Shown here one piece after another: positions 6,996-59,043 of a stretch of DNA of 61,309 nt. This DNA is from a virus. Lineage: Duplodnaviria > Caudoviricetes. The stretch covers positions 1 to 61,309 of the IMG/VR virus record IMGVR_UViG_3300025154_000095, one strand, 5' to 3'. The notes under the pieces were generated by a model. The model saw nothing but the letters and a program-made list of their open reading frames with translations. It had not been told where the DNA came from and searched no databases. How positions within the stretch are numbered: position 1 is the first letter of the stretch; each line of letters starts with the position of its first letter. The translations under genes and the position numbers were made by a program.

Positions 6996-7774
6996 ACTCT
7001 AAAATCACCCTTTAGAATTTCGCGGTTCATTGGTTTTTGTTTTTCTCGTTCTGATTTATATTGATATATTTTATCCACTGTTTGCTGTAGTGTTGGAGGT
7101 TCATTCTTTTGACCACGAAAATCATTTTTATACCACCATGACTCAAACCCTTTCAAATCATCTATTGTATATTCAGCTTTTATAAGTATCTTTGCAGTTT
7201 TACCAATTTGTCCTGCTTTTAATTTCATATCCAGTTTGCACATTTCTGCCAGTGCTCCAAAATAAATTTGATGTTCGGGAACTTTGTCTTTAAGTATGTC
7301 TTTAACCTGTCTTTTGTTGTTACCTGTTTGTGTAACACCTCTGTTACCTGCTTTGGTTACAGTGCTGTTACCTGCTTTGGTTACAGTTACCTGCTTTGGT
7401 AACACTTCATTTTTATTGAATCTATTTCCTCTTTCAGCATCGGATTCTATCCCGATCCATTGTTCTATGTATTTATTAAATCCGTAAGTTGGTATTTGGC
7501 CTTTGTCTAATCTCTTATAAATTATCTTTTTTTCAATCAATGATTTCAATGGTTTTAATACATGTTGTCTTTTGCTATCGGTTCCCTCTGCCCACTGGCT
7601 TAAACTTATAATATCCTCCTTTTTATTCCAGCCGTATGTTTTTCTGAATAAAAATAAAACACAGCGAAACTCTGCACCAGATAGCCTTGCCTTCGATAAT
7701 GCATCGAATATTGCATTATGAACCCTGGTAAACTCGCCTTGTTCTATTTGAATGTCGTTTCCGTTGGTTGCCAT
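6962..7774 (-). CDS. Lambda O-like replication initiator
   Basis: LSGAEFRCVLFLFRKTYGWNKKEDIISLSQ N-terminal motif; internal iterons. Confidence 0.85.
   Translation of the reverse strand: MATNGNDIQIEQGEFTRVHNAIFDALSKARLSGAEFRCVLFLFRKTYGWNKKEDIISLSQWAEGTDSKRQHVLKPLKSLIEKKIIYKRLDKGQIPTYGFNKYIEQWIGIESDAERGNRFNKNEVLPKQVTVTKAGNSTVTKAGNRGVTQTGNNKRQVKDILKDKVPEHQIYFGALAEMCKLDMKLKAGQIGKTAKILIKAEYTIDDLKGFESWWYKNDFRGQKNEPPTLQQTVDKIYQYKSEREKQKPMNREILKGDFRVWGGGIEDVQT
7319..7403. repeat. Four 18-bp iterons (GTTACCTGyTTkkGTwAC): probable replication origin
   Basis: Copies at 7319, 7343, 7367 and 7386 inside the initiator gene, next to an AT-rich tract. Confidence 0.85.
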
Positions 7775-11928: not shown

Positions 11929-14900
11929 ATGGGGGCTGCGCATCCAACACGCAGAGAGAGGATTGATGAAATGATGAGATTTACAAAATTAGTCCAAAAT
12001 GAAAAAGGGTATTGGGTTCAAGTAGAGTGCGATGGCAAAGGTAATATAAATCCTTATTATGGCTATCGTTGGACATGCCTCCCGCACCACCAACCCAAAA
12101 CCAAAGTCAAGTCATTGGAATTTTACGAGGACGTCATACGGCGCGCGATTGTATGCGAGCTGGTGCTATCTGACAGAAAGCCTGTGATAGGCATTGCCCG
12201 GTGTCACCCCAAAGACAAATACGACGAAGAAATAGGATACAAAATGGCGCTGACTAAAGCCATGGCTGACATGAGCCGCGAGACCCGGGCGATTGTGTGG
12301 AAATATTATTTTCGGAAGATTGCGAAGGAGTAGAGATGTTACAAGAAATGAAACACGGATTAGAAATTAGACACAAGGAAAATCTTAATGGAGAGGTTAC
12401 TGTTTGGCTGTGTAATTACGACAACGGTCAAGAGGTGTTAGTAAAAGATTTCAGCATAATTATGATACTAACTGATTCTTATAAGTTCTCTGAAAAATTA
12501 GCCAATGCACTGGAGTGCAAAATTGTTAGATATGTTGAAAAAACAACATGGAAAATAAAGGAATAACCATGCCCAACAGAGTGACCATATCAGCGTGTAA
12601 ACACAAACGGATCGACTTCCAACCCTATCGATCTTATTGCGCAATTCTGGGCGAGCCCAACTGCTCGATGATATGCCCACATGTCGAAATTGAGATTGCG
12701 GAGATTACAGATAGCATGATGATGGAAGCGGAGAAATATGCCACCAAGGCGTATGACTACACTTCGGGCGGGACCGTAAAACCAAGGATGGTGACAACAT
12801 GGTAAGAATAATATTAAACTACATATTGAGAGCTGCTGAATATGATCTCGTAAAAACACAACGAGACGTTTTACAAAAATCATATTTTGAAAATCGGGAA
12901 AGGATAGCAGCCCTCGAGCATGAGCGCGATTACCTGGACGAAAAGTGTGCGGAGCTTGAACATTACAAAAAGCTAAGTGACGAATGGGTAAAAGAGAAAG
13001 TCGATGGTCTGAATACGTTTGAAGAAATTGAAAAGATGGCACAAATAGTAGGCAGAATAAACGAAGAAAGTGTACTAATAGCATGTGGCTGGTGTGGTGC
13101 AAAATACGAAACCCGCGACCAGATAAAACAACACGCCCTATCGTGTAAAGATAACCCAGTAGCGCGACGGCTGGCAGACTTCGAACACCTGGCAGAGGAG
13201 TTTGCACAATTCAAGGCGCCTGACCACTTTTGCCGGCTGCGATTTATTCAACTGCTGAATTGTGGCAAGCCTATCAAGTATGTGGAGGAGTGATGGAAGA
13301 AATAGACTGGCTTCTAATTTTTGTTATGGTATTTATGTTCATAATTGGTTTTTATTTTGGGTATGATGTTAGAAAAGAAAGTGAGGAGTGATGGAAGAAT
13401 TTTCATTTACGCAACAAGAGCTATTAGACATAATAGATGACAAAGTAAAATACATCAAAAAATTACGGAAAGAAAAGGATGACGAAATCAACACCCTCAC
13501 CGCAACAATAGCACAGAAGGATGCGGAGATTGAGAGGTTGAGGTACGCGTTGATGGATATTGATTCTTATGTAGATGATGAATCAAAAAATGGAAGAATA
13601 ATCAGAAAAGCCCTAGAAGAGGTGAATGATGAAAAATAAAATATCAATTTCAATACATGGAGAAATTACGACTCACATTGCCGCTGATAATTGTAGTAAC
13701 TACGCAACCCTGTGTGGTTTAGATGGTGATGATATACATCCTACCGTAAACCAAAAGATTGTTGACAGCCGAAATAAAATAGATTGCTCTGCTTGTTATG
13801 AGATATGGAAACAATGTTTGTCATACACGCCAAAAGATTTCTCAATAGAGATACGGAGGAATGATGAATGAATTTACACCTGAATGGATTGAGAAACAAA
13901 GAGAGCGACTAATAAAAAGAGAGAACTTTTTCGCGTGGGATAACTATATATCATTACAAGCCCTTGACGAAATAGATCGTTTGCAAGCAATCATCGAATT
14001 AGCTGATTTAGATTACGAATCAGAACACGAGGCAAAAGAAAATTTACAAATGGCAACCGATACCGTTATTGCCTGTCTCCAATCACGTGTGCAGGAACTG
14101 GAATGCCAACTGAAATCTAAACAGATCGTCATCGAAAGTAAAGAACAAACGATTAGAGAGTTTGCAGAAAAGATGCTGGATTTGAGGAAAAGATGAGACA
14201 AGTACTTTACAAGATTTACAGCGTCAATATTCGCGGAGAAGAGCACTCTCCAGAAACAAAGCAAGGTGGTTTTGTTGCTTATACGCCTGATTATAAAAAT
14301 GCTGTTATTGAAACAAATTATGGAGAAGTGATTCATGTTCCAATTGAAAGAATTAGATTTCTCCATCCACAGGAGGAAGAATGAGCACATTTACCAAAGA
14401 ACAAGCTGCGATCAAAATAAATGAAATATTTGCGTCCATACTAAGTGATCATGATTCAAAATATTATCTTGATTGCAAATATTTGAGATGGGGATTAATC
14501 GAAAAAGAGATTATAGATATTATCAATCAAATAAAAGTGGAGGCCGAAATGAATAAGCAAAAATTTACATGTCAACAGTGTGGCTTAAAGATCGAATTAG
14601 AAACAGTATTCAAATTTGAGGTATGTCCAAAGTGTAATGGTAATCTGTTTCCCGATGATTATGTTAATCCACCAGATTATAAGACAATAGCTACAGATTT
14701 AGAGTTGGAGAATAAACAATTAAAAGCGGGCATACAGCTGCTACTTGACAACATAGACTATACCTCTGGTGCTTGTTCTCTCACCGAAATGGTTGGAGCT
14801 GTATTGCCACAGTCAATCATTTCAATTGTAAAGGGATACTTGAAATGAAAATAATTAATATTTTTACGTTGATTGAAGAATTTCGAAACGGTCGTGATAT

Positions 14901-34080: not shown

Positions 34081-35231
34081 TCTGTCTCCTTTTTGATATA
34101 AAACTCGTTTGCTCTATCCTCTCCAATTGCCTTTAGCAGGCTTAGTTCTACGTTCTGATGCCCAAATACCGGGTCGATGTGATCTCCCACAAAGTCACTG
34201 AGTGGCACTCCTGAATTGAACGCCTTGAATTTTGCAGGGTTCTTCAGGAAACTTGCCTGTGCCGCTTGTCTCTCAGGTGATAAGGAATTGAACCATTGTT
34301 CTCCCGTCTGAAATGGTACAAAATTACGCTGCCCTGGTTTACTGTCTGCTTGCATGGTATCGGGATAATCGGGACCGCCTAAGACTTGATAAAATTCACT
34401 GCATCGACCTCTATAATGATCGTCTACCCGTTCGCCTACTTCTAGCGGTGTTCCGTGTAATTCAATACAACTCAAACATGTCTTTTGGTCAAGTGTCGCT
34501 ATCCTGATTTTGCCCCTCAAATATTGACCGTTGACTAATTCCATAGCAGCTGAAGCCTCGCGGTAGCTGGTAAGCTGCAAGGTTCTCATGAGATTATCAG
34601 CGGCATGAACCGGGATATTCTCCGCGTGTTTTCGCATTTCCTGAGCGGTCTTGTAAGGTGACCACCCATTACTAATTCCGTTTATGATAACATCCCTTGT
34701 AAGGTTAGAATATCCAACGCCCCAGCCTTCCATTTTAGCAATCCACGCGGCGCTGTCTACAAAGCTGGTAGCAAAATCAACGCTGTTGGGTGCAAGCCAT
34801 TTGACATTTCGCCCTGATAGGATGGATACATATTGACTGAGTGCCTTCTCACTGACTGGATCAATGCCCCGTTCGATCATCACACCGGCAAGCGATGTGA
34901 ATACCTTTGCCGTGACCGCTGCTACTGCAAGCCTAACCGCTGAATTCTGGATCATGTCATCATTGGATTGTATCAATGTCGCGGTCGTAATCAGTGAATT
35001 CTGGTGCTGTAATAACGCGTCCTTCAAAGCAGGGTTATTCATGTCAAGCCGCTTGTCTAATTCAACCAACCGTTTAGCCTCTTCGTCTAATGCCAACAAA
35101 GCCCGTTGTAATGGGGAATTGCGAGCGGTCGACAATGTGTTGATTTGTTTCAACACCTGAGAGGCGGTCATAATGTATAAGCCGTCTAATGCCTTGTTTA
35201 TGTACTCAGTCAACGTGTAGATAGTTGCCAT
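34077..35231 (-). CDS. Minor head morphogenesis protein (MuF-like)
   Basis: D.KTC..C..LHG...H..GRC; follows portal. Confidence 0.75.
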   Translation of the reverse strand: MATIYTLTEYINKALDGLYIMTASQVLKQINTLSTARNSPLQRALLALDEEAKRLVELDKRLDMNNPALKDALLQHQNSLITTATLIQSNDDMIQNSAVRLAVAAVTAKVFTSLAGVMIERGIDPVSEKALSQYVSILSGRNVKWLAPNSVDFATSFVDSAAWIAKMEGWGVGYSNLTRDVIINGISNGWSPYKTAQEMRKHAENIPVHAADNLMRTLQLTSYREASAAMELVNGQYLRGKIRIATLDQKTCLSCIELHGTPLEVGERVDDHYRGRCSEFYQVLGGPDYPDTMQADSKPGQRNFVPFQTGEQWFNSLSPERQAAQASFLKNPAKFKAFNSGVPLSDFVGDHIDPVFGHQNVELSLLKAIGEDRANEFYIKKETE

Positions 35232-35238
35232 AATATCC

Positions 35239-36756
35239 TTAGATTACAGGTACACCACCACCAGCCCCGACAAGTGACTCAATAAAATTAGATTGCTGCG
35301 ATTGTGCAAGTTGTCCCTCTGCTACGATCTGACCAGCTTTCATTCCCAGCAAGCCGCCTATTTGCTCCCTATACCAGCTATCAGGCCAAAGTCCGGATGT
35401 TTTCTCTCGCATGGTAATTAACACCTCTAATCGTGCGTTCACGTCCAGTATTTCAGGTGATTTCCAGATGATATTCACGTCATCAATTACAGGCGCTTTT
35501 GGTAGCCCGTTATTATAGACGTTCTGCAATTCAGCCGACATGATAAACATGCGTTTGATTGCACCGTTATTCTCATTTTGAAAGCGGTAGATTTTACCGA
35601 TAAGCCCGGTCTCGAGTTGCTTCAATGCCTCGCCTGATAGGTTGCCATCCGCGGTCACTCCGTATATAGGCGTTTGGGTTGCCTGTGAGATTTCCCTCAC
35701 AACCTTGTCAATTTCAGCGATATATTGGGTCAGGTCTGTACCGCCCAACTCACCGATCTTGATTGCCTTCAAGAATTCGACCTGTTCGGCTGTCAGGTCA
35801 TAGATTATATTGCCGTCGTCATCCTTCATTACGAGATTGATTACACCACCTGGAACGATCCCGTCCCTGTTTATCTCTAAGCCAATAGCGTAGTACAGCT
35901 TGAATGCTGACAACTCACTAGCCATAGTCATGGAGTACAACGTTCGGTTTAGAATGTTCTGCAATGGTACAGCCGGTCGGATTTCACTCTCCCCGTAATC
36001 GGTATAGTTGTCTCTCTGATTGGCATAGTGTATCAATGGGATTTTGCCGTATTGCCAGGGTTCTTGACTTTTGCCTACCGTCTCACTAATTGGAGAAACT
36101 TCACGACCGCCAACATTCCCGGTCCACCTGGTTATTCTGGAAGGTTCATAGACAATAACCCTCATGGTCGTTTGTGCGCTGTCACTATCCTCAAGTAGCT
36201 GGTTCTGGTCGTCTGCCTCACTCCACAACTTGCAAGCCCATAACGGAGCCTTAGTGGTCGGGTCAAATATTGCCACAACACCAGAATGCCCGTCATAAGG
36301 CGGTTCTGCACTCCATGACATTGTAGCCGGGTCAATCAGGACGTAGGCGTCACCATCACGAATAGCACCCCTGTATAATTCACCCTGAAGCGCGTCAAAG
36401 TCATTGCGGTTGGTAATATCATCGATCCAGTCAGCCGCTTGCTGGTTGTTCTCCGCAACTCCACCAGGCATGACATTCTCAATGTGCAATCTGCCAGCCA
36501 TTTTATCGATGATGATACGCATGTAATTATCATTCAAATCTTCCAGATCCGCGTCATCGGTTTTCAGGCGTAGCATCGCTTTCATCTGTGTCGTGATGTC
36601 TGCGTCGTGGTCTCCGCGCTCGTACCTGCGATATTTGCGTACCCTTGCACCTTTTTTAAGGATAGTCGCGCTCCAACTGTTTTGTGCGTCAATAGATAAC
36701 GCTAATGACGGGTTGGTCTTTTCCAATGCTGATATTATTAATCCTGAGTTGTCCAT
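35239..36756 (-). CDS. Portal protein (SPP1 gp6-like)
   Basis: G.IP.IHY.N...GESEI, N.SGEALK. Confidence 0.9.
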   Translation of the reverse strand: MDNSGLIISALEKTNPSLALSIDAQNSWSATILKKGARVRKYRRYERGDHDADITTQMKAMLRLKTDDADLEDLNDNYMRIIIDKMAGRLHIENVMPGGVAENNQQAADWIDDITNRNDFDALQGELYRGAIRDGDAYVLIDPATMSWSAEPPYDGHSGVVAIFDPTTKAPLWACKLWSEADDQNQLLEDSDSAQTTMRVIVYEPSRITRWTGNVGGREVSPISETVGKSQEPWQYGKIPLIHYANQRDNYTDYGESEIRPAVPLQNILNRTLYSMTMASELSAFKLYYAIGLEINRDGIVPGGVINLVMKDDDGNIIYDLTAEQVEFLKAIKIGELGGTDLTQYIAEIDKVVREISQATQTPIYGVTADGNLSGEALKQLETGLIGKIYRFQNENNGAIKRMFIMSAELQNVYNNGLPKAPVIDDVNIIWKSPEILDVNARLEVLITMREKTSGLWPDSWYREQIGGLLGMKAGQIVAEGQLAQSQQSNFIESLVGAGGGVPVI

Positions 36757-38174
36757 GGTCGTTTCTCCGTTTTATTGCCGGTTATATAATTGCCTGTGGT
36801 TACGTTTATTCTGCCTTTGGGTTTGATTGATCCAGCCTCTAGTGCTAATGCCGCTGAAATGACAGTGTCATCATGCCCGTTCCCTTCGGCTGCAAGTCTC
36901 CAGAGTCCGGTTGTGGTCTGTGTGGCTACGAATAACTTAAATTCCTGCCTGGTAATCGGATCATCTAACATACGCCATCCACCCTCGTTTATTGCCTCGT
37001 GAAGGTTGCTCATAATCTCTGCCTTGCTTGCGTTCGTGGTCTCGAATGGCATAACGGTTAACCCGTCACTCTGCAATGCTTCGATATTCACCGATCCAAT
37101 GCTGTTTTTTTCAGCAAGCAATAATTGCAGATTGTATTGTTTGTACAATGATACTATACGCTTTCTAATTTCTGCCCATGATAGATTATTGACGCGTAAT
37201 TGATTAACCTCTCGTTTAGTCGTGAAGTCAAAAACCTTCATTGCTGTGAAGTCGTTATTTTGACCGAAGTCTAAACCGGCATAATATTTATGGTCATTGT
37301 AGTAAGGCTGTATTTGTTCGGTGAATACATGGGTTACATCCCCGAAGTATGAATTGCCACTTGTAATAAAACAGTTAATCGGATCTTCGGGGTATTCCTG
37401 AATAAACAGGTTTTTCAATTCACGCTGTTTTGACCTACGCCATTTTATTTGTTCCGGCGTCAATCCGTGTTTTCGCGATAAGTCCTCTTCATCACCCGTA
37501 AATATAACCGTTTCGCCCTCTGCAAGTGGAATACTATAATTTTCATCCCACCACCAGGGGTAAAAATGCAACGCCCAGGGGCTGTTACCACCTAATGCTT
37601 CCATGCACAAATCGTAGAAATACCCTTGCGCTCCGTTCGGTGTGGACTCAAGAATAATATCAGGTGATCCTCCCTGCATTGCCCCTGCCATAATCTTTTC
37701 AGCGTCATTCCAGAATGCAACCTCTGATCCATGGAAATCTGTATAAGTGTCACCACGCCCAGCCTCTTTACTACCAGCGGTTGCAATAACCGAAGTGCTG
37801 TCAAATTCAGGATAAGTGGCAAGTGAGGCATTGCTATATTTTCGCTCCGGTTGTGTGTCTCCAAACTTGCAATTTTCCCAGAACCTGTCTGCCATGCGCC
37901 TTAGTTTTTGGGTGGTCTCGCTATCATGTGCCATTGTCATGGTCGTGCGTGTGCTTGTTACCGTGCGATGATACATCTCCGCTTGAACGTAGGTGCTTGC
38001 CCCTAATTGCCGCGCTTTCAATAAAAGGTCTTTGCCGGTTCTGTGTTCGTGAAAGTGTTTTTGCATCTTATTCCACACAAGCGGCACAAGTTTTTTATTT
38101 TTATCCAATACTTTGAGAAAATGCTTACTAAACAATTCGGGATCACTAACAACCATGGTTTTAGTCGGGAGCAT
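36738..38174 (-). CDS. Terminase large subunit
   Basis: LKARQLGAST, ESTPNG, GLDFG, HDDTV. Confidence 0.92.
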   Translation of the reverse strand: MLPTKTMVVSDPELFSKHFLKVLDKNKKLVPLVWNKMQKHFHEHRTGKDLLLKARQLGASTYVQAEMYHRTVTSTRTTMTMAHDSETTQKLRRMADRFWENCKFGDTQPERKYSNASLATYPEFDSTSVIATAGSKEAGRGDTYTDFHGSEVAFWNDAEKIMAGAMQGGSPDIILESTPNGAQGYFYDLCMEALGGNSPWALHFYPWWWDENYSIPLAEGETVIFTGDEEDLSRKHGLTPEQIKWRRSKQRELKNLFIQEYPEDPINCFITSGNSYFGDVTHVFTEQIQPYYNDHKYYAGLDFGQNNDFTAMKVFDFTTKREVNQLRVNNLSWAEIRKRIVSLYKQYNLQLLLAEKNSIGSVNIEALQSDGLTVMPFETTNASKAEIMSNLHEAINEGGWRMLDDPITRQEFKLFVATQTTTGLWRLAAEGNGHDDTVISAALALEAGSIKPKGRINVTTGNYITGNKTEKRPWTTQD

Positions 38175-38463
38175 CGTCGCCCCCTTCGTCAAATTGTTCG
38201 ATAAAATCTCTCCATGTCATTTCAATGTTTTTGTTCTCTGTCTTTTGTACAGGCGCACCCATAAGATAATCAGCAAGCCATTTTCTAGCTACCGCGTCCC
38301 CGCGTTCTGCTTGATAGGCTGCTTTTTTAACTATACGCTCCCATTGTGCGAATGGTACAGATTCCAAGGCAATATCATAATAGCGCATTTCCCGCTCTTT
38401 CGGTTTGCGCCCTTTTGGATTACCGCTAATCCCTTTTACAAATTGCCCTTTTTCGTTTCTCAT
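38161..38463 (-). CDS. Terminase small subunit (DUF5681-like)
   Basis: GQFVKGISGNPKGR; directly upstream of TerL. Confidence 0.7.
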   Translation of the reverse strand: MRNEKGQFVKGISGNPKGRKPKEREMRYYDIALESVPFAQWERIVKKAAYQAERGDAVARKWLADYLMGAPVQKTENKNIEMTWRDFIEQFDEGGDDAPD

Positions 38464-38667
38464 TCCTGTTTTAATTCCTGCTATCTGGTTTATCTGTGAA
38501 CACCAACACAATGTTTACCAATTCGTTCAAATGTCCCATCATTTCTTTAGCTTGTTCTAAACAGTTCTCAGGTAAGTTTATTGTTATGTTGAAACTTCTA
38601 TCGACAAGTGATTTTATTTGTCTAAGCTCTGCCTGAAATTCAACTGCTACCAGTTTTGATTTCGACA

Positions 38668-38727
38668 TCACGCCTCAATCGTGGCTTCCACCACTGCGTC
38701 TAATCTTGCGAAATCGTTGTATGCCAT
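38668..38727 (-). pseudogene. 19-codon gene remnant or mini-ORF (MAYNDFARLDAVVEATIEA)
   Basis: AGGAGA RBS and ATG, then an early stop overlapping the next gene start. Confidence 0.4.
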
Positions 38728-38739
38728 TTGTTGTCTCCT

Positions 38740-39564
38740 TTATGGAAATGTCCTGTAAATCTCACCTACGGGTGATAATACACCACCCTCGAATAATCCG
38801 AAATCAAACCAACCATCTGGAATGTATTCGGCTTCGGGGTCGTATCTGTTGGTAAAATATGCGTATCTGGTAACCCATGCTTTGCTATCAATTACCGCTA
38901 ATAAACTAGATAATGATTCTGTGTCACCCGTTGTGTCTGCAAACTCTGTGATCCATACTTCTGGATGAACGCCTGAATAGTGATAGATAAACCATTCCGT
39001 GCTTGTCCACCATTGATCTAATTGTTCGGCTGTAATCCATGATTCTACATACCCATGAAATCCGTAGTATTGCGGCTTTGGTGTGTTCGGGTAATTAGCG
39101 TTCAACTCTATCAAAAATTCGATGTACCACATGGATGACCAAGCGGAGGCATTACCTACAATCAGTTTAGCTTGTGGTCTAGCCTGTACAAAATCGGCAT
39201 ATCGTTTAGCAGCCTCAATGGGTTGTATGCCTGCCCCATACGGTGCTGGATTGTTGGGCTCATTCAGAAATAGCACAAACCCGTCATAATCTACGGGTAA
39301 GTTATCATCGAATAAGCCATAGTAACTCATAGGAATATGTCTACTGTCCGCTGTTGGCTTTGGGTAATGTGTCCACGTGTAATACCAACCTGCCCCAACT
39401 TCGTCCAAGTCCTCAAGAAATGGAGTCACCAGCGCAATACCCTTGTTGCTGTCGTATGATGTTGGAATTGGTTCGTCTGGTATTGGTGCTTCGTAGTTAT
39501 TCGTAACTAATGGCAAATAGACAACCATCATTAACGCAACTAATCTACCAGCAAACTTTTTCAT
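38740..39564 (-). CDS. Exported glycoside hydrolase (Glyco_hydro_cc/GH128-like, clan GH-A)
   Basis: WYYTW, FLNEP, FHGY, VWITEF, RYAYF; N-terminal VYLPLV. Confidence 0.8.
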   Translation of the reverse strand: MKKFAGRLVALMMVVYLPLVTNNYEAPIPDEPIPTSYDSNKGIALVTPFLEDLDEVGAGWYYTWTHYPKPTADSRHIPMSYYGLFDDNLPVDYDGFVLFLNEPNNPAPYGAGIQPIEAAKRYADFVQARPQAKLIVGNASAWSSMWYIEFLIELNANYPNTPKPQYYGFHGYVESWITAEQLDQWWTSTEWFIYHYSGVHPEVWITEFADTTGDTESLSSLLAVIDSKAWVTRYAYFTNRYDPEAEYIPDGWFDFGLFEGGVLSPVGEIYRTFP

Positions 39565-39749
39565 TTCACCTCAACCCAATATGTCTTGGCTTTTTCGGGA
39601 TCAAGTGCCAATGTCGAAACATGTGCAATCAAACATCTGTACACTTTAGATTTGTACACTGCCATATCATCAACAGAGTATGCAACATCTACCGCCCACT
39701 CTGCCACTGTTGCTGCTGCATCGTAATACTTCGCCCATTTTGTTTTATC
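39561..39749 (-). pseudogene. Carbohydrate-binding (CBM5/12-like) module lacking a proper start
   Basis: EW....AY..DD...Y..KVYRC..AH.S...P......W; in the +1 frame over the stop of the 454-aa gene. Confidence 0.6.
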
Positions 39750-41109
39750 CTTTCTTGCATAAGCGACCACCGATAAACACGTACGTGTTCGCGGAGGAAT
39801 AAAGCAGATACCAATACCAGAGACCAGCAAGCCCACCGAGGCCCCAGCGCCCGCCGACGACGGCAATATATTGAGCAGTGCTTTGATAATAGTAATCTTT
39901 GTAGAAATTTGCACTAACATCCACAGGTAGCTCAATCATTGGATTAGCAGCATCAAAACCCATATACTTCACGTATCCACTTGCGTCTTTATTAACATAT
40001 CCAATTTGTTCGTAGGGGCTCGCAAAAACATTACTGGCATAATCATCTGCGTCTTTGCAAAACCAGGCTTGCCGTGCGTTAATATTAAGGCCATCCACAA
40101 ACTGCCAGACATTCCCATACAGATTTTCAATCCCGCGGTAATGGAATGGATTTTTACCGTTCGTATTATTCGCCAGCGATCCACTGCTCGCAGAAATCCC
40201 ACTTGAAAATCCAGATTTCCAGCCTACGTTATAAAGATAGTTTCCGGTTGCCGCATTAAACGCAGCCCCATCAACTGTGATGGTCGTGCTGCCAGCTCCA
40301 GGTGTATCAACGTCAATCTGCGTAATGTTACGGCCATAAAACACCTGATTACCACCCTGTGTCGATCCTAGTCCAACGGGTTGCCCAACAGCGAATTTAG
40401 CACCAATAGTATTTGCTACAACAATTGTGTTAGCCGCTGATGTGTCCGCTGTCAATACTTCAGTCGCTGCATAATTTCCAGCAGTCCACCCGGTCATAAT
40501 CGCCTGGCTATTCAGCGTCGCAAATTCCACCGTGAACAAAACCTGCAACATATCATACACGTGAATGTCTAATTGCTGATAACCAGCACCATTGGCTTCT
40601 GCGTAGGTTCTAAATTCGACAATATTCTTACTCACAAGCGGATATTCGTTCGGCAAGCTGTTTAACTTCGTACCACCCGTCAGGGTTGTGCCCGCAGGAT
40701 ACTTTCCAACATACACAAAATCTAATTCAGCACCTGTTGAAAAGTTATAAAAGCACCACGGCAAGTATGAGTTAGGCATTCTCGCTTTACATATCTGCCA
40801 TGTTTTTTTAGTGGCTGTATCAGTCTTACGTATGTAGAATTTCGGAATCTTTACAAAAACATTACTATCAGCGTCAGTGTATTCGTCAAACTCTGAATAA
40901 ATGGAAGCGGTATCAAAATCATTGGTTACGGTTGTCGCATCTACACCAGCTTCCGCTGTAAACCCAACGCTCCCATTTATTCTGGTCAGCGGTGTATCGG
41001 TTTTATCCCATGATACGCCATAAACCGCTTCGCCTGCATAGGTTGTTTGGACTTCGTTTATTCGTTTGCCGCCGAACAATAGCAGCATTTTTTGCGCTGT
41101 ACTTGGCAT
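39745..41109 (-). CDS. Receptor-binding/tail-fibre protein, DGR target-like, copy 2
   Basis: Same length as and highly similar to 45-1409; IGGRL C-terminus. Confidence 0.8.
   Translation of the reverse strand: MPSTAQKMLLLFGGKRINEVQTTYAGEAVYGVSWDKTDTPLTRINGSVGFTAEAGVDATTVTNDFDTASIYSEFDEYTDADSNVFVKIPKFYIRKTDTATKKTWQICKARMPNSYLPWCFYNFSTGAELDFVYVGKYPAGTTLTGGTKLNSLPNEYPLVSKNIVEFRTYAEANGAGYQQLDIHVYDMLQVLFTVEFATLNSQAIMTGWTAGNYAATEVLTADTSAANTIVVANTIGAKFAVGQPVGLGSTQGGNQVFYGRNITQIDVDTPGAGSTTITVDGAAFNAATGNYLYNVGWKSGFSSGISASSGSLANNTNGKNPFHYRGIENLYGNVWQFVDGLNINARQAWFCKDADDYASNVFASPYEQIGYVNKDASGYVKYMGFDAANPMIELPVDVSANFYKDYYYQSTAQYIAVVGGRWGLGGLAGLWYWYLLYSSANTYVFIGGRLCKKG
39763..39867 (-). repeat. DGR VR-like segment, copy 2
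   Basis: Differs from 63-167 almost only at codon positions 1-2. Confidence 0.8.
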
Positions 41110-41275
41110 GTTACACTCCTCTCCCCTGCTTTATCGCTAATCGTGGTTGTAATCGCCATATCATACCGCCCTCACATAGCTTGGTAATATCTCTAAAATA
41201 TATCATTTAAACTCCTAAAATATTTATATTCTATATTATAACGGATAAAATTGTAATTTACACCCCTAAAACCAA

Positions 41276-41300
41276 AAAGACCGAGCAAAGCTCGGTCTTT
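41276..41300 (-). terminator. Terminator after phage B capsid gene
   Basis: AAAGACCGAGC-AAA-GCTCGGTCTTT perfect stem with T-run. Confidence 0.8.
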
Positions 41301-41319
41301 GTTTTGTTAATGCTTACTC

Positions 41320-42477
41320 TTACCCGATTACGTTACAGGTAGTTACAATGTTTCCAGTGAATTTAGAAGTAAATGCACTGTGAGCACAAGCATGTTTGAT
41401 AACCAAAGCTGTCTTAGCCCATACCTCGAAAGCTACAGAGGTACAACCGGGGGCTAAATCTCGATAGGTCAATGGGAACTGATCTACACGATACACCAAA
41501 GGATCACCATTGTGTGTCATACGCAAACCGTAAAGGGTAGAAGTAAATGTTCCACCACCAGCATCTGCACGATCAAAGTTGTAATCGGAAACTACAACTA
41601 AACGACCAATACCAGTGTTCACAAACCCAGCAAAGTTAAATCCGGGGGTAACACGATTCCCATCAGAGAAGTTCACAACCTGAGAACCAGCAAAGCCTAA
41701 TTGGAAATATCCTGATAACATTTCCTGAATAGCTGAGGGGTGTCCATAGATGTGAGTTGGTTTTGCACAACCTTCTGATAAGAAACGATCAAAGTTAGCT
41801 GCGGAGAATGTAGCACCAGATGTTGAATTACTCAGGTTATTATGGAACGTAACAGACATATCTCCCTGCCAGTTCTGAATACCAGAGAATTCTAATGCGT
41901 TGTCGCCTGAATCTCCATCAACCAATAATCGATCCCAACCGTTCATAACTAAGGTGGCTGCTAAACGAACTTCTTTTTCCTTTAAGCCCATAACTTGCTC
42001 GGACATAAATGAACCAAAGTCTGCTCCACCGGGCATACCTGCTGAACTAGCTTGCCCACCAAGTAACCGATTGATTCCGTTCCATCCAGCTGCTGAAACA
42101 GCCATTGAATGTCGAATATCACTTTCGGTTAATGATTTCTTAGCACCGATGTTCTTTAAAGTAACCGTAAGGTTACTACCACTGTGGTTGTATTCCTCTG
42201 GGCACTCGCCATCTGCAAAAGCAATATAGCTAGAACCAGAAGCAAACTGCAACGCACTCATTTCACGCCAATATTCCTGTTTAAGCATAGTGCTTTTTGA
42301 GGGGATAGTCTGCAAAGCAGTTACTTCCTCGCACATAGCTAACAGTTCTGTAGTATCTAATGGTTGGGGGAACTGACCAGTGAAATCACCGGGAGTAGCA
42401 ACATTAGTAACTACGGGATCAGTGGCTTTGCTTTGAAAAGCTCCACCCTCTGCTAAATCTAAAATTTGTTCGCTCAT
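41320..42477 (-). CDS. Major capsid protein (phage B)
   Basis: 385 aa after protease/scaffold; L..GD......EF.GI motif. Confidence 0.8.
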   Translation of the reverse strand: MSEQILDLAEGGAFQSKATDPVVTNVATPGDFTGQFPQPLDTTELLAMCEEVTALQTIPSKSTMLKQEYWREMSALQFASGSSYIAFADGECPEEYNHSGSNLTVTLKNIGAKKSLTESDIRHSMAVSAAGWNGINRLLGGQASSAGMPGGADFGSFMSEQVMGLKEKEVRLAATLVMNGWDRLLVDGDSGDNALEFSGIQNWQGDMSVTFHNNLSNSTSGATFSAANFDRFLSEGCAKPTHIYGHPSAIQEMLSGYFQLGFAGSQVVNFSDGNRVTPGFNFAGFVNTGIGRLVVVSDYNFDRADAGGGTFTSTLYGLRMTHNGDPLVYRVDQFPLTYRDLAPGCTSVAFEVWAKTALVIKHACAHSAFTSKFTGNIVTTCNVIG

Positions 42478-42498
42478 AATAATTACTCCTGTAAAATA

Positions 42499-43941
42499 TT
42501 AAAGTCTTGTTCGTGGAGTTTGACTTTTAGTTGTTCCTCTAATCATAGCTGCCAACTTTGGGGTTGGGCTATTATTACTTACTTCTGACTTAATAGCAAG
42601 ATCATTAGAACTCATTCCACGAGGTTTCGGGATATAAACTCCCTTGTTTACTGTATTTTGTGATTCAACTACAGTATTCCATTGTTCAGTAATCTTTGCC
42701 AACTTCTCTGCTAATGGGGCTATGGCTTTCTCTATAATGCGTTCAATGCTTTCATTCGAGCTAGAGGTTTGTGCTTCGGATTTTGCTTCACTCTTGGGTT
42801 TAACATTTTCCAAAATCGCTTCTCCCACCGCATCTATTCCACTCTGTATAGCCTGTAAGCGTTCATCAACTGTTTCATAGTTCTCAATAGCTGAGTCATA
42901 TAGACTTTTAAGGTTCATAAGGGATTCATCCAAAGGATGAGATTCCACTTTTTGTACCAATTCAACCCTATTATCCAACTTATTAATAACTAATTCAAGT
43001 TTTTCCTCTAATTTCTCTTGGAACTTAAGGGTCTTTTCCTGATATTCTGCAAAAGATGTGGCTTCTGCTTCAGACTTTTTAACTTTCTTGTCCTTTTCTT
43101 CTTCCTCATCCTCATCAGACTCTTCCTCAGAATCCTCCGTTGGTTTTTCTTCCTCTGTAGGTTTTTCCTCAGAATCCTCTTTCTCTAGTTCTTCTTTCTT
43201 TTTCTTAATAACCAGAGATTCTTCTGCCTTACCAATTAAACTGTGTTCAGTTTCCATTTCCTCAGCCAGTTCCTCACCTACGATTGTGGCTGCATCTTGT
43301 TTTCTAGTAGTCATGCTTTTTTCCTCCAAATCTAGTCCAAATTCAGTCCTTTGATTGCACGGTATTCTTGTTACTGCTAAGTGCACCAACTGACCGTCTA
43401 CATAGACTTTGTTTTCCATCCCCTTAGCACAGTAGGGACAGGAGTCTAATAAATTTTTTCTCTCAAACAATATATCACCGTGTTTATGAGCATAATCTAT
43501 AAAGCCTATGGAAATTCTTATCTTTTGCTCATATCCATCACCAGTTTCACTATACAGACTTTTGCACACAGAATCAAATACTTTTATTCCAATGGGGTTA
43601 TTAGAAAACTTACCTTTGGCTTTTAGCTTCTCCCCGTCTATGTATAAGTCCTCTACTATACCAGCAGCCCACTTACCATCTAAATCTAAATAGTGGGATA
43701 CACTTATATAGGGCATACCACCATCCCAGAATTTAGAAGCAAATGGAGCAGGTACTTTAACATCTGCTTTAGCTTTTTCTATAAAGGATTTAAATACTTC
43801 AAGGGACATTTTCTCTTTAGATAAATCTAAATCTGTATCACTAGCAACTGCTGACCATCTGCGTTCCTGTGTTGTTTTATCGAAAGAAGCCTTTGATATA
43901 TAAAATGTAAATTCAGACAATTGCATAAAGTTAACTCCCAA
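42499..43941 (-). CDS. Prohead protease-scaffold fusion
   Basis: ASDT..D...E, SIG, HLAVT..P.N; acidic coiled-coil C-terminus. Confidence 0.75.
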   Translation of the reverse strand: MGVNFMQLSEFTFYISKASFDKTTQERRWSAVASDTDLDLSKEKMSLEVFKSFIEKAKADVKVPAPFASKFWDGGMPYISVSHYLDLDGKWAAGIVEDLYIDGEKLKAKGKFSNNPIGIKVFDSVCKSLYSETGDGYEQKIRISIGFIDYAHKHGDILFERKNLLDSCPYCAKGMENKVYVDGQLVHLAVTRIPCNQRTEFGLDLEEKSMTTRKQDAATIVGEELAEEMETEHSLIGKAEESLVIKKKKEELEKEDSEEKPTEEEKPTEDSEEESDEDEEEEKDKKVKKSEAEATSFAEYQEKTLKFQEKLEEKLELVINKLDNRVELVQKVESHPLDESLMNLKSLYDSAIENYETVDERLQAIQSGIDAVGEAILENVKPKSEAKSEAQTSSSNESIERIIEKAIAPLAEKLAKITEQWNTVVESQNTVNKGVYIPKPRGMSSNDLAIKSEVSNNSPTPKLAAMIRGTTKSQTPRTRL

Positions 43942-44263
43942 TAACTATGTTCATAAAAGAGGATTCCCATCCTCTAAATATTAGATAGCCAATAAACGAC
44001 ATTACACATCCCGTAACCACAAATTCCAGAATGGGAATCCCTATAGATATTATAGTAAATTTAAACAGCCAAGACAACACCGAAAAACTCCATACCCCCA
44101 AGCAAAGATAACAGTCTAATAAGTCCACAAAAGAATGAATTTGAAGTTTCTTATCCAGCCATCTGGCTATACCATACGAAAGTGGCTGTTTTTTAAACAG
44201 CCACATAAGTAAATACCCTAAACCTAACAGTAAAAAGAAATTTACTACCGGACTAGAAGCCAA
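43931..44263 (-). CDS. Small membrane protein (C..C.G.W, DUF1360-like)
   Basis: TM segments; LLDCYLCLGVW. Confidence 0.45.
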   Translation of the reverse strand: MASSPVVNFFLLLGLGYLLMWLFKKQPLSYGIARWLDKKLQIHSFVDLLDCYLCLGVWSFSVLSWLFKFTIISIGIPILEFVVTGCVMSFIGYLIFRGWESSFMNIVIGS

Positions 44264-44476
44264 GATACTCTCCTACCTTCGGGTAGGGATTCTAAAACAT
44301 CAAATTTGAAAATCTTCCACCCTTCTTTTAGGAATGAGTTAATATAGTTTTCTGCCTGATCTACCGTAATAAGACCTGCCCCAGATGGAACAGCTCCGAT
44401 AGTTCGTAAAATAAATTTTATCTCTTTGTAATCCATATCAATATTCTCCAATATATTCAATTTTTCAAATCCTTCA

Positions 44477-44842
44477 CTAGGAAATGTTTCCTGCTGTACT
44501 TCCTTTTTTACTGGCATTTTTCCTCCGTTTTCTATCTTCTGGTTTATATTCAAATACTGCTTCATATTCTACTTCTTTATACAGAATGAGTTCTTTTTGC
44601 TCATCATCCTCATATTCATCTTCCCTATCGAATTCATACAAGGTAAGAAATTCCTCATTCTTTAAAATACTTCTACTACCATCTTCATGGATTAAAATCC
44701 AATCCCTTGGGTCTAAGACATATAATCCTTTATTTATTGTTATATATCCTTTTCCATCTCGAATTGTTACTCCACGTATAGGAGTCCCATTCCACTGTTT
44801 AGCCTTTACTACTTCTGAAATTCTTTTGTAATACTTACTCAT
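44477..44842 (-). CDS. Hypothetical phage protein
   Basis: VKAKQW...DWIL...G......EEF...YE pattern. Confidence 0.5.
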   Translation of the reverse strand: MSKYYKRISEVVKAKQWNGTPIRGVTIRDGKGYITINKGLYVLDPRDWILIHEDGSRSILKNEEFLTLYEFDREDEYEDDEQKELILYKEVEYEAVFEYKPEDRKRRKNASKKGSTAGNIS

Positions 44843-45375
44843 AATTTCTCCACTGGTATCAACGCACCAAGTCCGTTATTTTCCTCTGATAAATCCTCAT
44901 ATCTCCACCTAGGATTTCTTTCAACAAACTTCTTTATGGCATCAGTCATTGGGTTATATTTTCCACTCATCCAAGTATCATGGAACATCCAGATAGTCTT
45001 ATCATGGGAAATATTTTTCCAAACTTCTAATTCCTTTTCCATAATGTTATAGTTATGCTCTGTGTCTATAAAGATAACATCTGCTAATTTATTTTTAGCT
45101 ATATCTTGAACTTTCTGTAGAGTTTCTAACTTTCTACTATCACCCAGTACCAAATGCCACCAAGAACCTACTGGTCTATACTCTGGGATAATAACATCTT
45201 CAAGATCAACACTAATGTAAAGTTTATTCTTTCTACGGTTTTCTTCCATCAATTTCTTAAAGACAGTAGTAGAGCCATCACCAAAGGCACATCCTATCTC
45301 TAGGATAAAATCAGCCCCTTTTGTCCTGTCTGCAAGAATAGGTAGTAATAATTTTATATCATCCCTAATTAACAT
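44839..45375 (-). CDS. Class I SAM-dependent methyltransferase (Methyltransf_24-like)
   Basis: ILEIG...G.ST, GDS, IFIDTEH.Y, FHDT. Confidence 0.85.
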   Translation of the reverse strand: MLIRDDIKLLLPILADRTKGADFILEIGCAFGDGSTTVFKKLMEENRRKNKLYISVDLEDVIIPEYRPVGSWWHLVLGDSRKLETLQKVQDIAKNKLADVIFIDTEHNYNIMEKELEVWKNISHDKTIWMFHDTWMSGKYNPMTDAIKKFVERNPRWRYEDLSEENNGLGALIPVEKL

Positions 45376-47672: not shown

Positions 47673-49172
47673 TTAAAGAGCGATAAATTCAATCTTACCC
47701 CACGAACTAGGTGGGGCTAAAATAGCAAAACACCCACTTACACAATCAACAAGATCATCATGCCTTACATCTGGGAAGTTTGCAAATTGATTTAGAAAAG
47801 CAGAGTTCCAAGAACCACGTACTAAGTAGACTAAACCAGCCTCGGCTTTGGCAAACCAAGGTTGTGATCTCATCACCTTATCTCCCATTGATCTTGGGTC
47901 ATGGGCTTTCACAGTAAATCCAGTAAGCTCAGGTATCATAGCTATTGCTGCTACCTGATTCTTTCCACCAGAAGCTGGCTCTTTCTCTATATAAATTGGA
48001 ACATCCTTTCCATCCATATAAGCTGTTTTTACTATAGCATCAACAATTCCTGACCAAGACTCTCTCACAACAACCTGATCTGCAATAATAAATTTTGAAT
48101 AGTCACGCATTAGCTTTGTTCCAACAGTATAGTCGGGTGAACCGCCCTTTTTTCCTACCACCATTTTCTTTTCTGTGGCTGCCATATCCCAATATCTAAC
48201 CTGTGTAACAGAACTCCTTGAAGCTCTGGCTATAAAGGGTTCTGAATCAAGTATCTTACCAGTAAACCAATCTCTATTGCCAAGTGAACCACCAGAACTA
48301 ACAAATTTACCAAACAGTTCCTGCTCTCGTAACCAACCATCTGCATAGGTAGCTAACTGCTGGGCATAAAAGCCGGGGTCTAGGTTAGCTTTGTTATCTT
48401 CAATACTTCCAAAGAAGAACTCTACAAATTTATTGTTAGGATACACAGAGGAAAACTCATCTAAAGCCTGTGGGTCTATTTCTTGTTTGATAAACAAATC
48501 ATACATCCAGTGATCTGTACCTTTAGGGGTAGCGGTAGCCCAAAGCTGAGGATATTCACCTACACGAACACAGGAAGAAGCTATCTGCCAACCAAGACCT
48601 GTTTGATCTCTACCAGCTTCATCATACCAAAGCCAATTTACATTAGCACCACGAGCAGACTCTGGGTCTTTCAAACCTTTACAAGTAACAGTAGCCCCAT
48701 TCAAGAAGTTTAGAGTAAAAGGCTGTGATGGACTCCAATCTGGGAATCCCCTATATCTATGCCTTTCTACTACCATCTCCCAAGGAATCCATTGTCTGAA
48801 CTCAACCCAAGTTGAATACTTAAAGTTTTCAAAGTCTGGGTTTAGAACCATTCCTGATTGCCCCTGACGAATTTTATTTATAGCTTTCTGGCTTCCCGAA
48901 CAAGTTTTTCCACTTCCTCTACCACCACTATATAAAGAGAGCTTTGCTGTACTGTGTATAAACTTTTCCTGTACTTCCGTTGCTCTAAACCTAGCCCCAT
49001 CAAATCTTTTGTAATATCCATTCTCATCCATGTTCCATAATTTGGATTTAGTTGAATAATCAACAGCTTGCTTTTGGTTAGGGACTTCTATTCCTCTGGA
49101 CTTCATTTCTGTCAAGAGGGCTACAAGCTGCTGTCGTTCTTCTTTGGTCATTTTACGTTGAACTTTAGTCAT
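47673..49172 (-). CDS. Terminase large subunit (phage B)
   Basis: GGRGSGKT, WYDEA, TATPKG, YWDMA, HDD.VD. Confidence 0.92.
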   Translation of the reverse strand: MTKVQRKMTKEERQQLVALLTEMKSRGIEVPNQKQAVDYSTKSKLWNMDENGYYKRFDGARFRATEVQEKFIHSTAKLSLYSGGRGSGKTCSGSQKAINKIRQGQSGMVLNPDFENFKYSTWVEFRQWIPWEMVVERHRYRGFPDWSPSQPFTLNFLNGATVTCKGLKDPESARGANVNWLWYDEAGRDQTGLGWQIASSCVRVGEYPQLWATATPKGTDHWMYDLFIKQEIDPQALDEFSSVYPNNKFVEFFFGSIEDNKANLDPGFYAQQLATYADGWLREQELFGKFVSSGGSLGNRDWFTGKILDSEPFIARASRSSVTQVRYWDMAATEKKMVVGKKGGSPDYTVGTKLMRDYSKFIIADQVVVRESWSGIVDAIVKTAYMDGKDVPIYIEKEPASGGKNQVAAIAMIPELTGFTVKAHDPRSMGDKVMRSQPWFAKAEAGLVYLVRGSWNSAFLNQFANFPDVRHDDLVDCVSGCFAILAPPSSWGKIEFIAL

Positions 49173-50582: not shown

Positions 50583-53064
50583 ATGGTGAGAATAAAAATA
50601 GTAACAATAATTAATAAGTTTATATGTAAAAAGTTTGGGCATAAATATAATCGTTGGGTTTTTCCTAGTGGAGTTAGTCTGATGAGAGATCACAATGATT
50701 TTATTTGTGTACGGTGTGATAAAAAGTATTTTGATGAAGAATATTATCAAAAAGTGTGGGGGTGTTCTTCAAAAGAATGGTGGACAGAGGAACAAAAACA
50801 ATTTTATTATGATAATTATTGCCAAGGATAAGGAGAAAATATGCAGTCAATTTTTACTAATTATGTACCACCTAAAAAGGGAATAACCCCGGCTGATTTG
50901 GTAGCTTTTTATTTTACAGAAGCTACAGTTTGTGAAGATTTACTTAAGTTGGGATATACACATTCTAATGGAGTAAATCTAGTTGAGCAAGTAAATTACC
51001 TACAGGGTAAGATTAGATTATTAGAAGGACAGAAAGGAAACCGAATATGAAAATTAAATTTAAGCATACTTATATTGTAATTCCACCTAGTATTGAATTT
51101 GAAAATGAGAATAGGAGATTTACAATATGTACTGTAGAGGATGGTAACTGGACTTTGGTTGGTCAATCTATTTGTCATCCAAAAGATCAGTTCTGTAAGG
51201 CTATTGGTAGAAAAGTGGCTTTAGCAGATGCTATTAGGGGGCTTCCAAAAGAAACTCGTAAGACTATTTGGGATGAATACCACAGTAAGTTTAAAGTACC
51301 AAATGCAAAATAAAGAAATTTATATTTGTAGAGAGGGTTGGGTACTTTACGATAAGTGGGTAAACAGTCGAGATAAAAAAGAGAAAGAAAAGCATAGACT
51401 ACAGTTTTTACTTCATAGAAATTCTTGTAGCTTATGTACCAAAGCAGAGGAGGATGCGTGTTCATAAAAATGGAAGCTAAAGAATGGCTAGAGTGGGCTG
51501 ATGAAAGAACTAATCTTAAAGCAGAAAATAAGAAGTTGAAAGAGGCCTTGAACAGTATACTTATTATTACAACAACAGGAAATACTATGTTTGCTGCTGA
51601 ACTTTTATGTGAGATTGGTGCTATCACTAAACAGGGCTTAAATAATGAAGTAATACTAGAAGGGGGAGGCATAACATGAACGTAATCAAGATTGTTGTGG
51701 ATGAGACAAAACGTTGTTGTAGTGAGTGTGAATTATCTTTTTATAGTAAAGAAAAACAGTTGTTTATTTGTTTTGCTACAAAAAATCAGATACATGATTC
51801 ACAAGATGTACCCTCATGGTGTCCGCTTGTTGTTGAGGATGTGTGCGAGTGGCATGAAACAGAAGTTAATGAACATGGCTGGAGATTTTGGATGACGGGT
51901 TGTAAAATAAAATATGACAGTTCGGTACAAATTACAAAGGGCGAGTTCAACTTTTGCCCATCATGTGGCAAGCGTATCAAGTATGTGGAGGTTGAGTGAT
52001 GAGCACAAATAGCGACCCGATGGTCAAATGTCCTATATGTGGTTTTCTTTATTATCACTATACAAATATAGTATGTCCTCGTTGTAACTTCGATAACAAA
52101 AATATTTCACAAAACGAATCATTAGATGCCCTCACCGCAACCATAGCACAGAAGGATGCGGAGATTGTGAGGTTGAGGTACGCGTTGATGGATATTGATT
52201 CTTATGTAGATGATGAATCAAAAATTGGAAGAATAATCAGAAAAGCCCTAGAAGAGGTGAATGATGACAACATTTGAATGGATATTAATAGTTGTTGCGG
52301 TAATCTCCTTATATTTTGTTCTCAAAAACAAAGTAGAAAAAGATTTTCATACCAAAGAGTGTGGGCAAGATAGACACGAGGTTGAAAACTATGTTTCTAA
52401 ATGGATGGCAAAACCTTGGAAAGCAAATGAATTATTGGGGGAGAAGGATGATGTGTGGAGCTATAGATACGAAGGTTATAAGTTAAGAAAGACTGTAGAA
52501 GCCTGTAAACACTGTGGAAAAATTTTTAGTACATCTTGGAAAAAGATTGATGAATACACTGGAATTTCGGCAGATAATTATACAATGGATGAATTTGCCG
52601 AAAATGGAATAGTGGAGTGGAGCTAGAGGTGAATGATGACTGAATTTACACCTGAATGGATTGAGGAACAAAAGAAATTGCTAAACCGTATTTCTCCACT
52701 TCCGTGGAAAGCCTGTGATTGTGACAAATGTGGTCAAATATCAAACAAAATTGATTGTATTGCTAAAGCAACCATTGGTGATTGGGGCGATGATTACCCT
52801 TCCATAAGACGTATAGGAGGTTCAATCGAGGGAAGATTTGAAACGTATATGGAACAAATAACTTATGGTTCTGTTTCAAAGGATGAAGGAATAGCGAACG
52901 CAAAATATATTGCCGAAGCCTGTAATAACTATCCAAATGCCCTTGACGAAATCACCCGTCTCCAATCACGTGTGCAGGAACTGGAAGATGAATTGATGTT
53001 CTATCAAATGGAATGCCCTGACCTTGTTGGAAGATACCAACCACCAAAGGACGGGAACGAATGA
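50583..53064 (+). other. Operon of small hypothetical early genes (phage B)
   Basis: Overlapping short ORFs with RBSs; several homologous to phage A early genes. Confidence 0.75.
52129..52267 (+). repeat. 139-bp block shared with phage A (13494-13632)
   Basis: 3 mismatches. Confidence 0.9.
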
Positions 53065-58947: not shown

Positions 58948-59043
58948 ATATGTCATATAAACTGAATAAATTGCTTACAATTTGTAACATATTACTGATT
59001 AAATTTTGGGAATCAATTCCCATATTTAGACCTAATTTTGGGA
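58948..59043. other. Short cluster of operator-like sites shared with the phage A array
   Basis: AATTTTGGGA pair with 32-bp period, TTACAA-T-TTGTAA, ATATGTCATA. Confidence 0.6.

Follow-up and report, generated by a model that had tools for sequence, protein, structure and literature searches.

The window, that is, the whole stretch of DNA analysed here, comprises 61,309 bases and is a single IMG/VR virus record, which we divided into phage A (1–39700) and phage B (39701–61309). Phage A encodes a large terminase (36738–38192), a portal (35239–36756), a GH25 lysin, RecT and tRNA-Thr, and phage B encodes a large terminase (47673–49172), a portal-like gene, two DNA methylases, an RNA ligase and tRNA-Met. 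The initial annotation had spoken of two phages, which the doubled large terminases and portals bear out, as does the match of 81% between 1–1448 and 39701–41147. Few proteins are common to A and B; a 454-aa tail protein (83% identity) and a few short segments are shared. In two public sequencing runs (X1 and X3), whose contigs were compared with 35000–45000, the contigs are fragmented at ~35.5–41.2 kb, and in both a 393-nt piece with a depth of about the sum of its flanks bridges 39379–39771. In our interpretation, two related phages that occur together were probably assembled into this record through a stretch common to both; as the record joins two phages, its completeness estimate as one genome is doubtful.

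Each phage carries one copy of a bipartite site (Table 1). At 59002–59043 (plus strand), phage B reads AATTTTGGGAATCAATTCCC, 12 nt and AATTTTGGGA, and the reverse complement of phage A at 15599–15558 (minus strand) reads AATTTTGGGAATGGATTCCC, 12 nt and AATTTTGGGA. The pattern AATTTTGGGAAT-NN-ATTCCC-N12-AATTTTGGGA occurs exactly at these two places in the window and in none of 100 shuffles, and the 42-nt pattern with up to three mismatches is likewise found twice (0.00 expected), so that the same bipartite site with the same 12-nt spacing is present in both phages as first described. Furthermore, all four copies of the 10-mer AATTTTGGGA in the window lie inside the two sites (0.42 expected; 0 of 100 shuffles reach four), and the inner palindrome GGGAATNNATTCCC is confined, within the window, to these sites. 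The bipartite site is real, non-random and non-coding.

Table 1 Features at and around the two sites, in coordinates of the window
Feature	Position	Strand	Remark
Full palindromic unit AATTTTGGGAAT-CA-ATTCCCATATTT, phage B	59002..59027	+	23/24 consensus positions
Terminal half-site AATTTTGGGA, phage B	59034..59043	+	Starts 32 nt after full-unit start
68-aa hydrophobic ORF, phage B	59050..59256	+	Starts 6 nt after half-site; ATG here, GTG in L057
Rest of ATPase-type 5′ regulatory region, phage B	58947..59006	-	Half ACTGATTAA, AATTTATTCAGT box, -10-like TGACATATT
TTACAA-T-TTGTAA inverted repeat	58975..58987	.	In L057 reads TTACAATATGTAA, 5-bp arms kept
Full palindromic unit AATTTTGGGAAT-GG-ATTCCCGTTTGT, phage A	15574..15599	-	22/24 consensus positions
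Terminal half-site AATTTTGGGA, phage A	15558..15567	-	Only 6-codon ORF after
Conserved non-coding element, tRNA-Thr to motif, phage A	15600..16290	-	Homologue L047 4825-5620 (+), syntenic
tRNA-Thr (TGT), phage A	16363..16435	-	tRNA search

The palindrome centre is CA in B and GG in A, and fixed arms around a free centre are the conservation pattern that would be expected of a protein-binding site, as the initial annotation had proposed. Its companion statement, that the 12-nt spacer also differs, is half right: only 5 of 12 spacer positions match between A and B, and 10 of 12 match between B and a bacterial unit (locus L067), so that the first part of this "spacer" belongs to the repeat unit, which is 32 nt long with a semi-conserved T-rich right flank. 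Both smaller elements noted nearby, TTACAA-T-TTGTAA and ATATGTCATA, are indeed present. The link between the phages that had been drawn from ATATGTCATA (58948–58957, plus strand, in B; 15998–15989, minus strand, in A) is probably due to chance, with ~0.22 copies expected in the window, 10 copies with one mismatch against 7.3 expected, and an A copy that lies ~390 nt from the A motif and, by alignment, not at the position corresponding to the B copy.

The phage B site occupies part of a 103-nt gap that separates a 51-aa ORF from the 68-aa hydrophobic ORF, and its half-site shares bases with a GGGAG ribosome-binding word located 5 nt ahead of the ATG at 59050. No Pfam or PHROG family was assigned to the 68-aa ORF, and viral_contigs yielded no relative of it. 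In L057, a 94% relative of B, the 42 nt are unchanged and the 51-aa ORF is missing; a 151-nt indel between B and L057 (58792–58942) carries this ORF. The phage A site is at the end of ~700 nt of non-coding DNA downstream of tRNA-Thr on the minus strand, and a syntenic relative of A, L047 (same sequence as L063), bears the site at the same place (AATTTTGGGAATGACTTCCC, 12 nt, AATTTTGGGA). Thus two phage lineages bear the site (A with L047, B with L057), and no phage gene consistently follows it. The initial annotation had named a shared small coding sequence as an alternative, which we rejected: the B site lies between ORFs, and A and L047 have only unrelated ORFs of 6–7 codons after it.

Comparison of A and L047 showed that 27 of the 28 array-defining positions are identical, compared with 8 of the 14 free ones and 61% of ungapped columns; under the same mask, 9 of 916 windows reach 27. 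The best reading of this comparison is that, in the phages, selection acts on exactly those positions that would define the array. The ~700-nt element itself has variable stretches between strongly conserved blocks, one of which, GCTGGAGGAAAGTCCAA, resembles a conserved strand of RNase P RNA. A 5′ hairpin with a GUAA loop shows three compensatory pairs, the consensus fold reaches -92 kcal/mol on the minus strand compared to -67 on the plus strand, and a search of Rfam returned no match to the element; from two sequences only, it may be a new large phage RNA.

To place the site outside the two phages, metagenomes and 185,579 species genomes were scanned for TTTTGGGAANNNNTTCCCN{10,14}ATTTTGGGA, a scan that required exact words and thus biased the discovery of loci. 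This yielded 19 loci (12 from metagenomes and 7 from species genomes), all with the same gap and a 32-nt register; the genome loci come from Chloroflexota (five MAGs, four of them labelled Anaerolineaceae) and Fibrobacterota (two MAGs). In viral_contigs, strict and relaxed scans alike returned only L047 besides the record itself, and a direct-repeat scan gave 40 loci, of which L047 alone has the inner palindrome and the same spacing. The search of phages and hosts that the initial annotation had suggested thus added a third phage contig, 12 metagenome loci and 7 bacterial genomes, contrary to the absence from other phages and hosts that it had named as refuting its idea. Among INPHARED phages, the B region had no match and the A region matched at its tRNA only; the only plasmid match was a 21-nt chance hit. 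When five array-bearing MAG genomes were searched against the phages, the array and a tRNA-like stretch made up all shared DNA. The first 20 nt alone gave eight loci in viral_contigs, which, judged by their flanks, all lie inside coding-looking sequence, have no second copy and were set aside as unrelated. Separately, an AT-rich region of a 109-kb viral contig (L016, 640–960) holds many TTTTGGGAA and TTCCCAAAA words and a looser GGGAA-type palindrome whose centre has 5 nt rather than 4, with no ATPase nearby.

The bacterial arrays define a 32-nt unit in perfect register, composed of AATTTTGGGAAT-NN-ATTCCC, a T-rich hexamer and 6 free bases. Its core palindrome TGGGAAT-NN-ATTCCC is flanked by AATTTT on the left and a T-rich stretch on the right, as it also is in A and B. 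Anaerolineae arrays have two full units and a left-arm half-site (four units in L068), and the phages have one full unit and a half-site (1.5 units), the latter displaced by +32 nt in A, B, L047 and L057. Full units of Anaerolineae and Fibrobacterota arrays score 21–24 of 24 consensus positions (one weak unit, 19), a range into which the phage units fall (22 and 23), and those of a third group (L058, L060 and L065) score 17–19. Judged from its sequence, the phage site is one full unit plus the terminal half-site of a 32-bp-period array of ~26-bp palindromes.

Examination of the genes beside the scan matches by tblastn placed the start of an ATPase gene directly against the array in 13 of the 19 loci. 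These ATPases are 378–392 aa long (381–392 aa where the whole gene was fetched; the L072 locus ends inside the gene, and its full length of 378 aa was read in L078), combine AAA_14 and DUF4143 domains (E 1e-26 to 1e-34) and match the PADLOC model PDC-S01 (PDLC04789) over the full length (E 7e-123 to 3.5e-139). They form three groups ~37–43% identical to each other, and their arrays are nearly the same. The six exceptions comprise the phage relatives L057 and L063; L058, whose contig ends 243 nt after the array and holds no ATPase; and L055, L062 and L064, in which the first palindrome is truncated, no ATPase is present and the DsrE-like neighbour is the same as in Anaerolineae. In these last three loci (12400–12500 in L055), the array lies next to ArsR-type and DsrE-like genes, which makes them orphan arrays in bacteria.

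Elements between array and gene follow a set order: array, CG, TGCTATAAT, 6 nt and ATG in Anaerolineae; array, TG, TATATT, 6 nt and ATG in L072; and array, 22 nt with GGAG, and ATG in L065. In Anaerolineae the nearest palindrome is ~5 bp from the extended -10 box and the ATG is leaderless. Given this spacing of array, -10 box and ATG, the nearest palindrome overlaps the core promoter and the gene is mostly leaderless. The phage site is homologous to this promoter array of one PDC-S01-type gene group. The groups are not alike in how the array is oriented with respect to the gene, as would suit a symmetric DNA site. By tblastn, no ATPase homologue was detected in the window, nor in the retrieved portions of L047, L063 and L057 (matches up to E 10 were noise), and no phage ORF matched the ATPase HMM; the phage copies are thus orphans. 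A degraded ATPase gene in the non-coding DNA of A was considered and rejected, as no remnant was found.

The association of repeats with these ATPases extends beyond the GGGAAT-type arrays. Each of five genomes (G001–G005) holds 5–27 matches to the family model, and 22 of 27 distinct paralogue upstream regions contain a palindrome or direct repeat beating 95% of shuffles, compared to 8 of 35 control regions upstream of neighbouring genes, where the shuffles preserved base composition alone. Significant periods are mostly 32 or 33 nt: L075 has two ATTTTGTCACT-NN-AGTGACAATTTTT units with a different core, 32 nt apart and followed by a -10 box and ATG, and L073 has about seven repeats of 32–33 nt; repeats in L086 and L095 are 23 nt long. 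In many paralogues (L073–L102), the -10 box lies 6 nt before the ATG, a leaderless arrangement. As each paralogue has its own repeat at a common period, the sequence is paralogue-specific and the period is shared.

An AlphaFold model of the ATPase (mean pLDDT 87.5, from a 14-sequence alignment) has as its best PDB matches Cdc6/Orc1 bound to origin DNA (2qby, E 2e-8), followed by ORC and DnaA, with low TM-scores (~0.3), as expected for multi-domain chains. In the model, residues 210–279 show a helix-helix-helix-hairpin pattern as in a winged helix; by sequence, no close solved structure was found. The proposal that both phages target the same host DNA-binding protein has advanced as far as a candidate, the Orc1/Cdc6-like AAA_14+DUF4143 ATPase whose gene adjoins most arrays. 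The predicted recognition helix of the winged helix does not separate GGGAAT-type proteins from others, and in a maximum-likelihood tree GGGAAT-type ATPases are not one clade (two changes are needed; L065 and L060 join L073), with their monophyly not rejected (p-AU 0.053).

The gap in phage B resembles such an upstream region over more than the site. B and the region upstream of another ATPase paralogue (L074) share two 14-mers at the same 34-nt spacing, and the B intergenic region is collinear with this upstream region. A four-way alignment gives, towards the place of the ATPase, the order half-site, full palindrome, TTAATCAGT-NN-ACTGATTAA, AATTTAT..AGT box and -10-like word. L047 and L074 have the whole TTAATCAGT-NN-ACTGATTAA palindrome, B has one half of it and A has none, and the -10-like TGACATATT (58955–58947) is the reverse complement of ATATGTCATA. 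Within viral_contigs, the L074-type palindrome occurs only in L047 and in an unrelated intergenic hairpin in L119. Further 14-mers shared with the upstream regions of L076 and L091 lie inside phage coding sequence (e.g., ALMDIDSY) and were taken as chance.

We propose that the array is the cognate operator of the AAA_14+DUF4143 ATPase and that phages keep orphan copies of it under selection, attracting the host protein, an explanation to which we give about an even chance of being correct as a whole. That the ATPase binds the array is the best-supported inference within it, drawn indirectly from the location on the promoter, the paralogue-specific arrays and the Orc1/Cdc6-like fold. An ATPase dimer would occupy each palindrome, adjacent dimers lying on the same helix face at a distance of three turns; they would cover -35 to -10 of the ATPase's own, often leaderless, promoter, which would amount to auto-repression. 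If selection acts on array-defining positions in phages, as the A and L047 comparison suggests, the orphan copies would attract the host ATPase during infection. They might then hold the host protein away from other DNA, or might couple neighbouring phage transcription (in B, that of the 68-aa gene) to the presence of the ATPase. In the phages, the site may be a regulatory hook, a decoy or a relic.

Loss of function altogether is the first alternative: phages may once have acquired the 5′ region of an ATPase gene, alone or together with the gene itself, and the site may be a decaying leftover. The B intergenic region does look like a whole ATPase upstream region minus the gene, each phage has 1.5 units, nothing conserved lies downstream of the site in A and L047, and bacteria too hold ATPase-less truncated arrays (L055, L062 and L064). 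Decay is nonetheless hard to reconcile with the near-complete identity of the defining positions between A and L047 while free and background positions drift, and with retention of the site in two phage lineages in different contexts. Nor was a source found, as viral_contigs held no contig with an intact ATPase and a GGGAAT array (relaxed scan, L047 only), or any ATPase remnant. We consider a functionless relic unlikely.

A more specific function, also doubtful in our estimate, is that the 1.5-unit operator is an anti-defence device, either a DNA decoy or a "self" tag that would capture or silence a PDC-S01-type ATPase-nuclease. PDC-S01 is reported to rank fourth among the commonest defence candidates of prokaryotes (PMC12988326) and is described as very common but unvalidated (PMC12988326, PMC13356809). 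Phages with shortened copies of the repeat array of a host defence locus have precedents: wild-type PhiTE carries 1.5 pseudo-ToxI repeats (PMC3475682), and Racrs, RNA anti-CRISPRs made of solitary repeat units, mimic CRISPR repeats (PMC10651486). Unlike the site described here, a putative DNA operator read from sequence, those elements act as RNA and are shown to work. Counting against the operator explanation as a whole are the 1.5 units per phage, few for titration, and the ATPase-less truncated arrays in bacteria. Were the site an anti-defence device, the 1.5-unit site could expand under selection, as pseudo-ToxI does in PhiTE; as a corollary, each PDC-S01 paralogue would read its own 32–33-bp-period array, which would give a handle on DNA recognition.

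Somewhat less probable than these two is a site for another protein, either a global regulator of the host or one made by the phage, which would control these ATPase genes as well. Neither the recognition helix nor the protein tree tracks operator type cleanly, as such a reader would allow; however, each paralogue has a different array by its own start, which fits a cognate rather than a shared reader. As for a reader encoded by the phages, no phage ORF resembles the ATPase, and A and B have few proteins in common.

An RNA element would place the function in a transcribed hairpin with U-tract repeats, serving as a terminator, a translation switch or an antitoxin-like RNA that restrains the nuclease, with the phage copy as a pseudo-antitoxin. 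The A hairpin is flagged as terminator-like, with 6 pairs and the tail TTTGTGGTTC, in a stem with only 3 G-C pairs, and no terminator was called in B, where the half-site supplies GGGAG before the ATG. One unit is compensatory (GGGATT-AT-AATCCC in L070), G.T-type variants outnumber A.C-type variants on this strand by 4 to 2, and the PhiTE wild type has 1.5 repeats (PMC3475682). Against these observations, RNAs of the three phage sites have dissimilar folds that do not surpass those of shuffles (z -1.05, +0.94 and -0.08), the -10 box of Anaerolineae lies between array and ATG, so that the array is upstream of that transcript, and orientation relative to the gene flips between groups. There was no Rfam family match: apart from tRNA, all scores stayed below gathering, with a best E of 0.0008 for the bacterial arrays and of 1.2 for the phage sites. 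We regard an RNA element as improbable. Type III toxin-antitoxin (ToxI-like) repeats were rejected specifically, given the Anaerolineae -10 box after the array, the varying orientation and the lack of a shared RNA fold. Set against typical CRISPR repeat and spacer lengths, a CRISPR mini-array or solitary repeat unit was rejected as well: the "spacer" has a length of only 12 nt and is conserved in part (A/G-T/A-T/A-T-T/A-T, followed by 6 free bases), and one unit directly follows another every 32 nt.

Replication-origin iterons recruiting an Orc1/Cdc6-like initiator are very improbable. Speaking for them are the predicted resemblance of the fold to Cdc6/Orc1 on origin DNA, the repeated sites next to the protein's own gene and the position of the phage site in or beside non-coding DNA; speaking against them are the 5–27 paralogues per genome each with its own array, the C-terminal nuclease domain of the protein and the lack of an ATPase gene in either phage.

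As a cognate operator of the ATPase, the array would share features with several known systems. Archaeal orc genes adjoin their origins. Archaeal Orc1/Cdc6 with its origin recognition boxes likewise combines an AAA+ module with a winged helix at the C terminus, is the closest fold to our model (2qby) and has repeated dyad-symmetric sites beside its own gene; different here are the extra PD-(D/E)xK (DUF4143) domain, the many paralogues per genome and the location of the sites over a core promoter. Tandem palindromic operators of auto-regulated repressors also present one-face palindromes over the core promoter with more sites upstream, and fixed arms around a free centre, whereas here the presumed reader is an AAA+ ATPase-nuclease and not a small repressor, and a 32–33-bp period holds family-wide with paralogue-specific sequence. 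The bacterial genes beside the arrays match the PDC-S01 (AAA_14+DUF4143, COG1373) model over the full length, whereas the phages have the upstream array only, without the gene. In the literature on PDC-S01, DUF4143 and COG1373, the accessible texts gave no description of cis-elements or upstream repeats; their supplements may hold more. A cognate array for each paralogue, if true, would open the family's DNA specificity and regulation to direct testing, and phage orphan copies under selection would be the first sign of phages engaging a PDC-S01 protein. If the copies are decoys, they would parallel, at the level of DNA, the RNA mimics exemplified by pseudo-ToxI and Racrs.

Elsewhere in the window, tRNA-Met (CAT) of phage B (54198–54271) is found by ARAGORN and falls below the Rfam gathering score in a whole-window scan. 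A 142-nt segment is 97% identical between 13494–13635 and 52129–52270, inside ORFs of 83 and 93 aa that are otherwise different, which suggests a recent exchange or a constrained piece. Lastly, phage A holds four copies of the 19-nt sequence GTTACCTGCTTTGGTTACA at 7319–7404, spaced by 24, 24 and 19 nt, within a minus-strand ORF.
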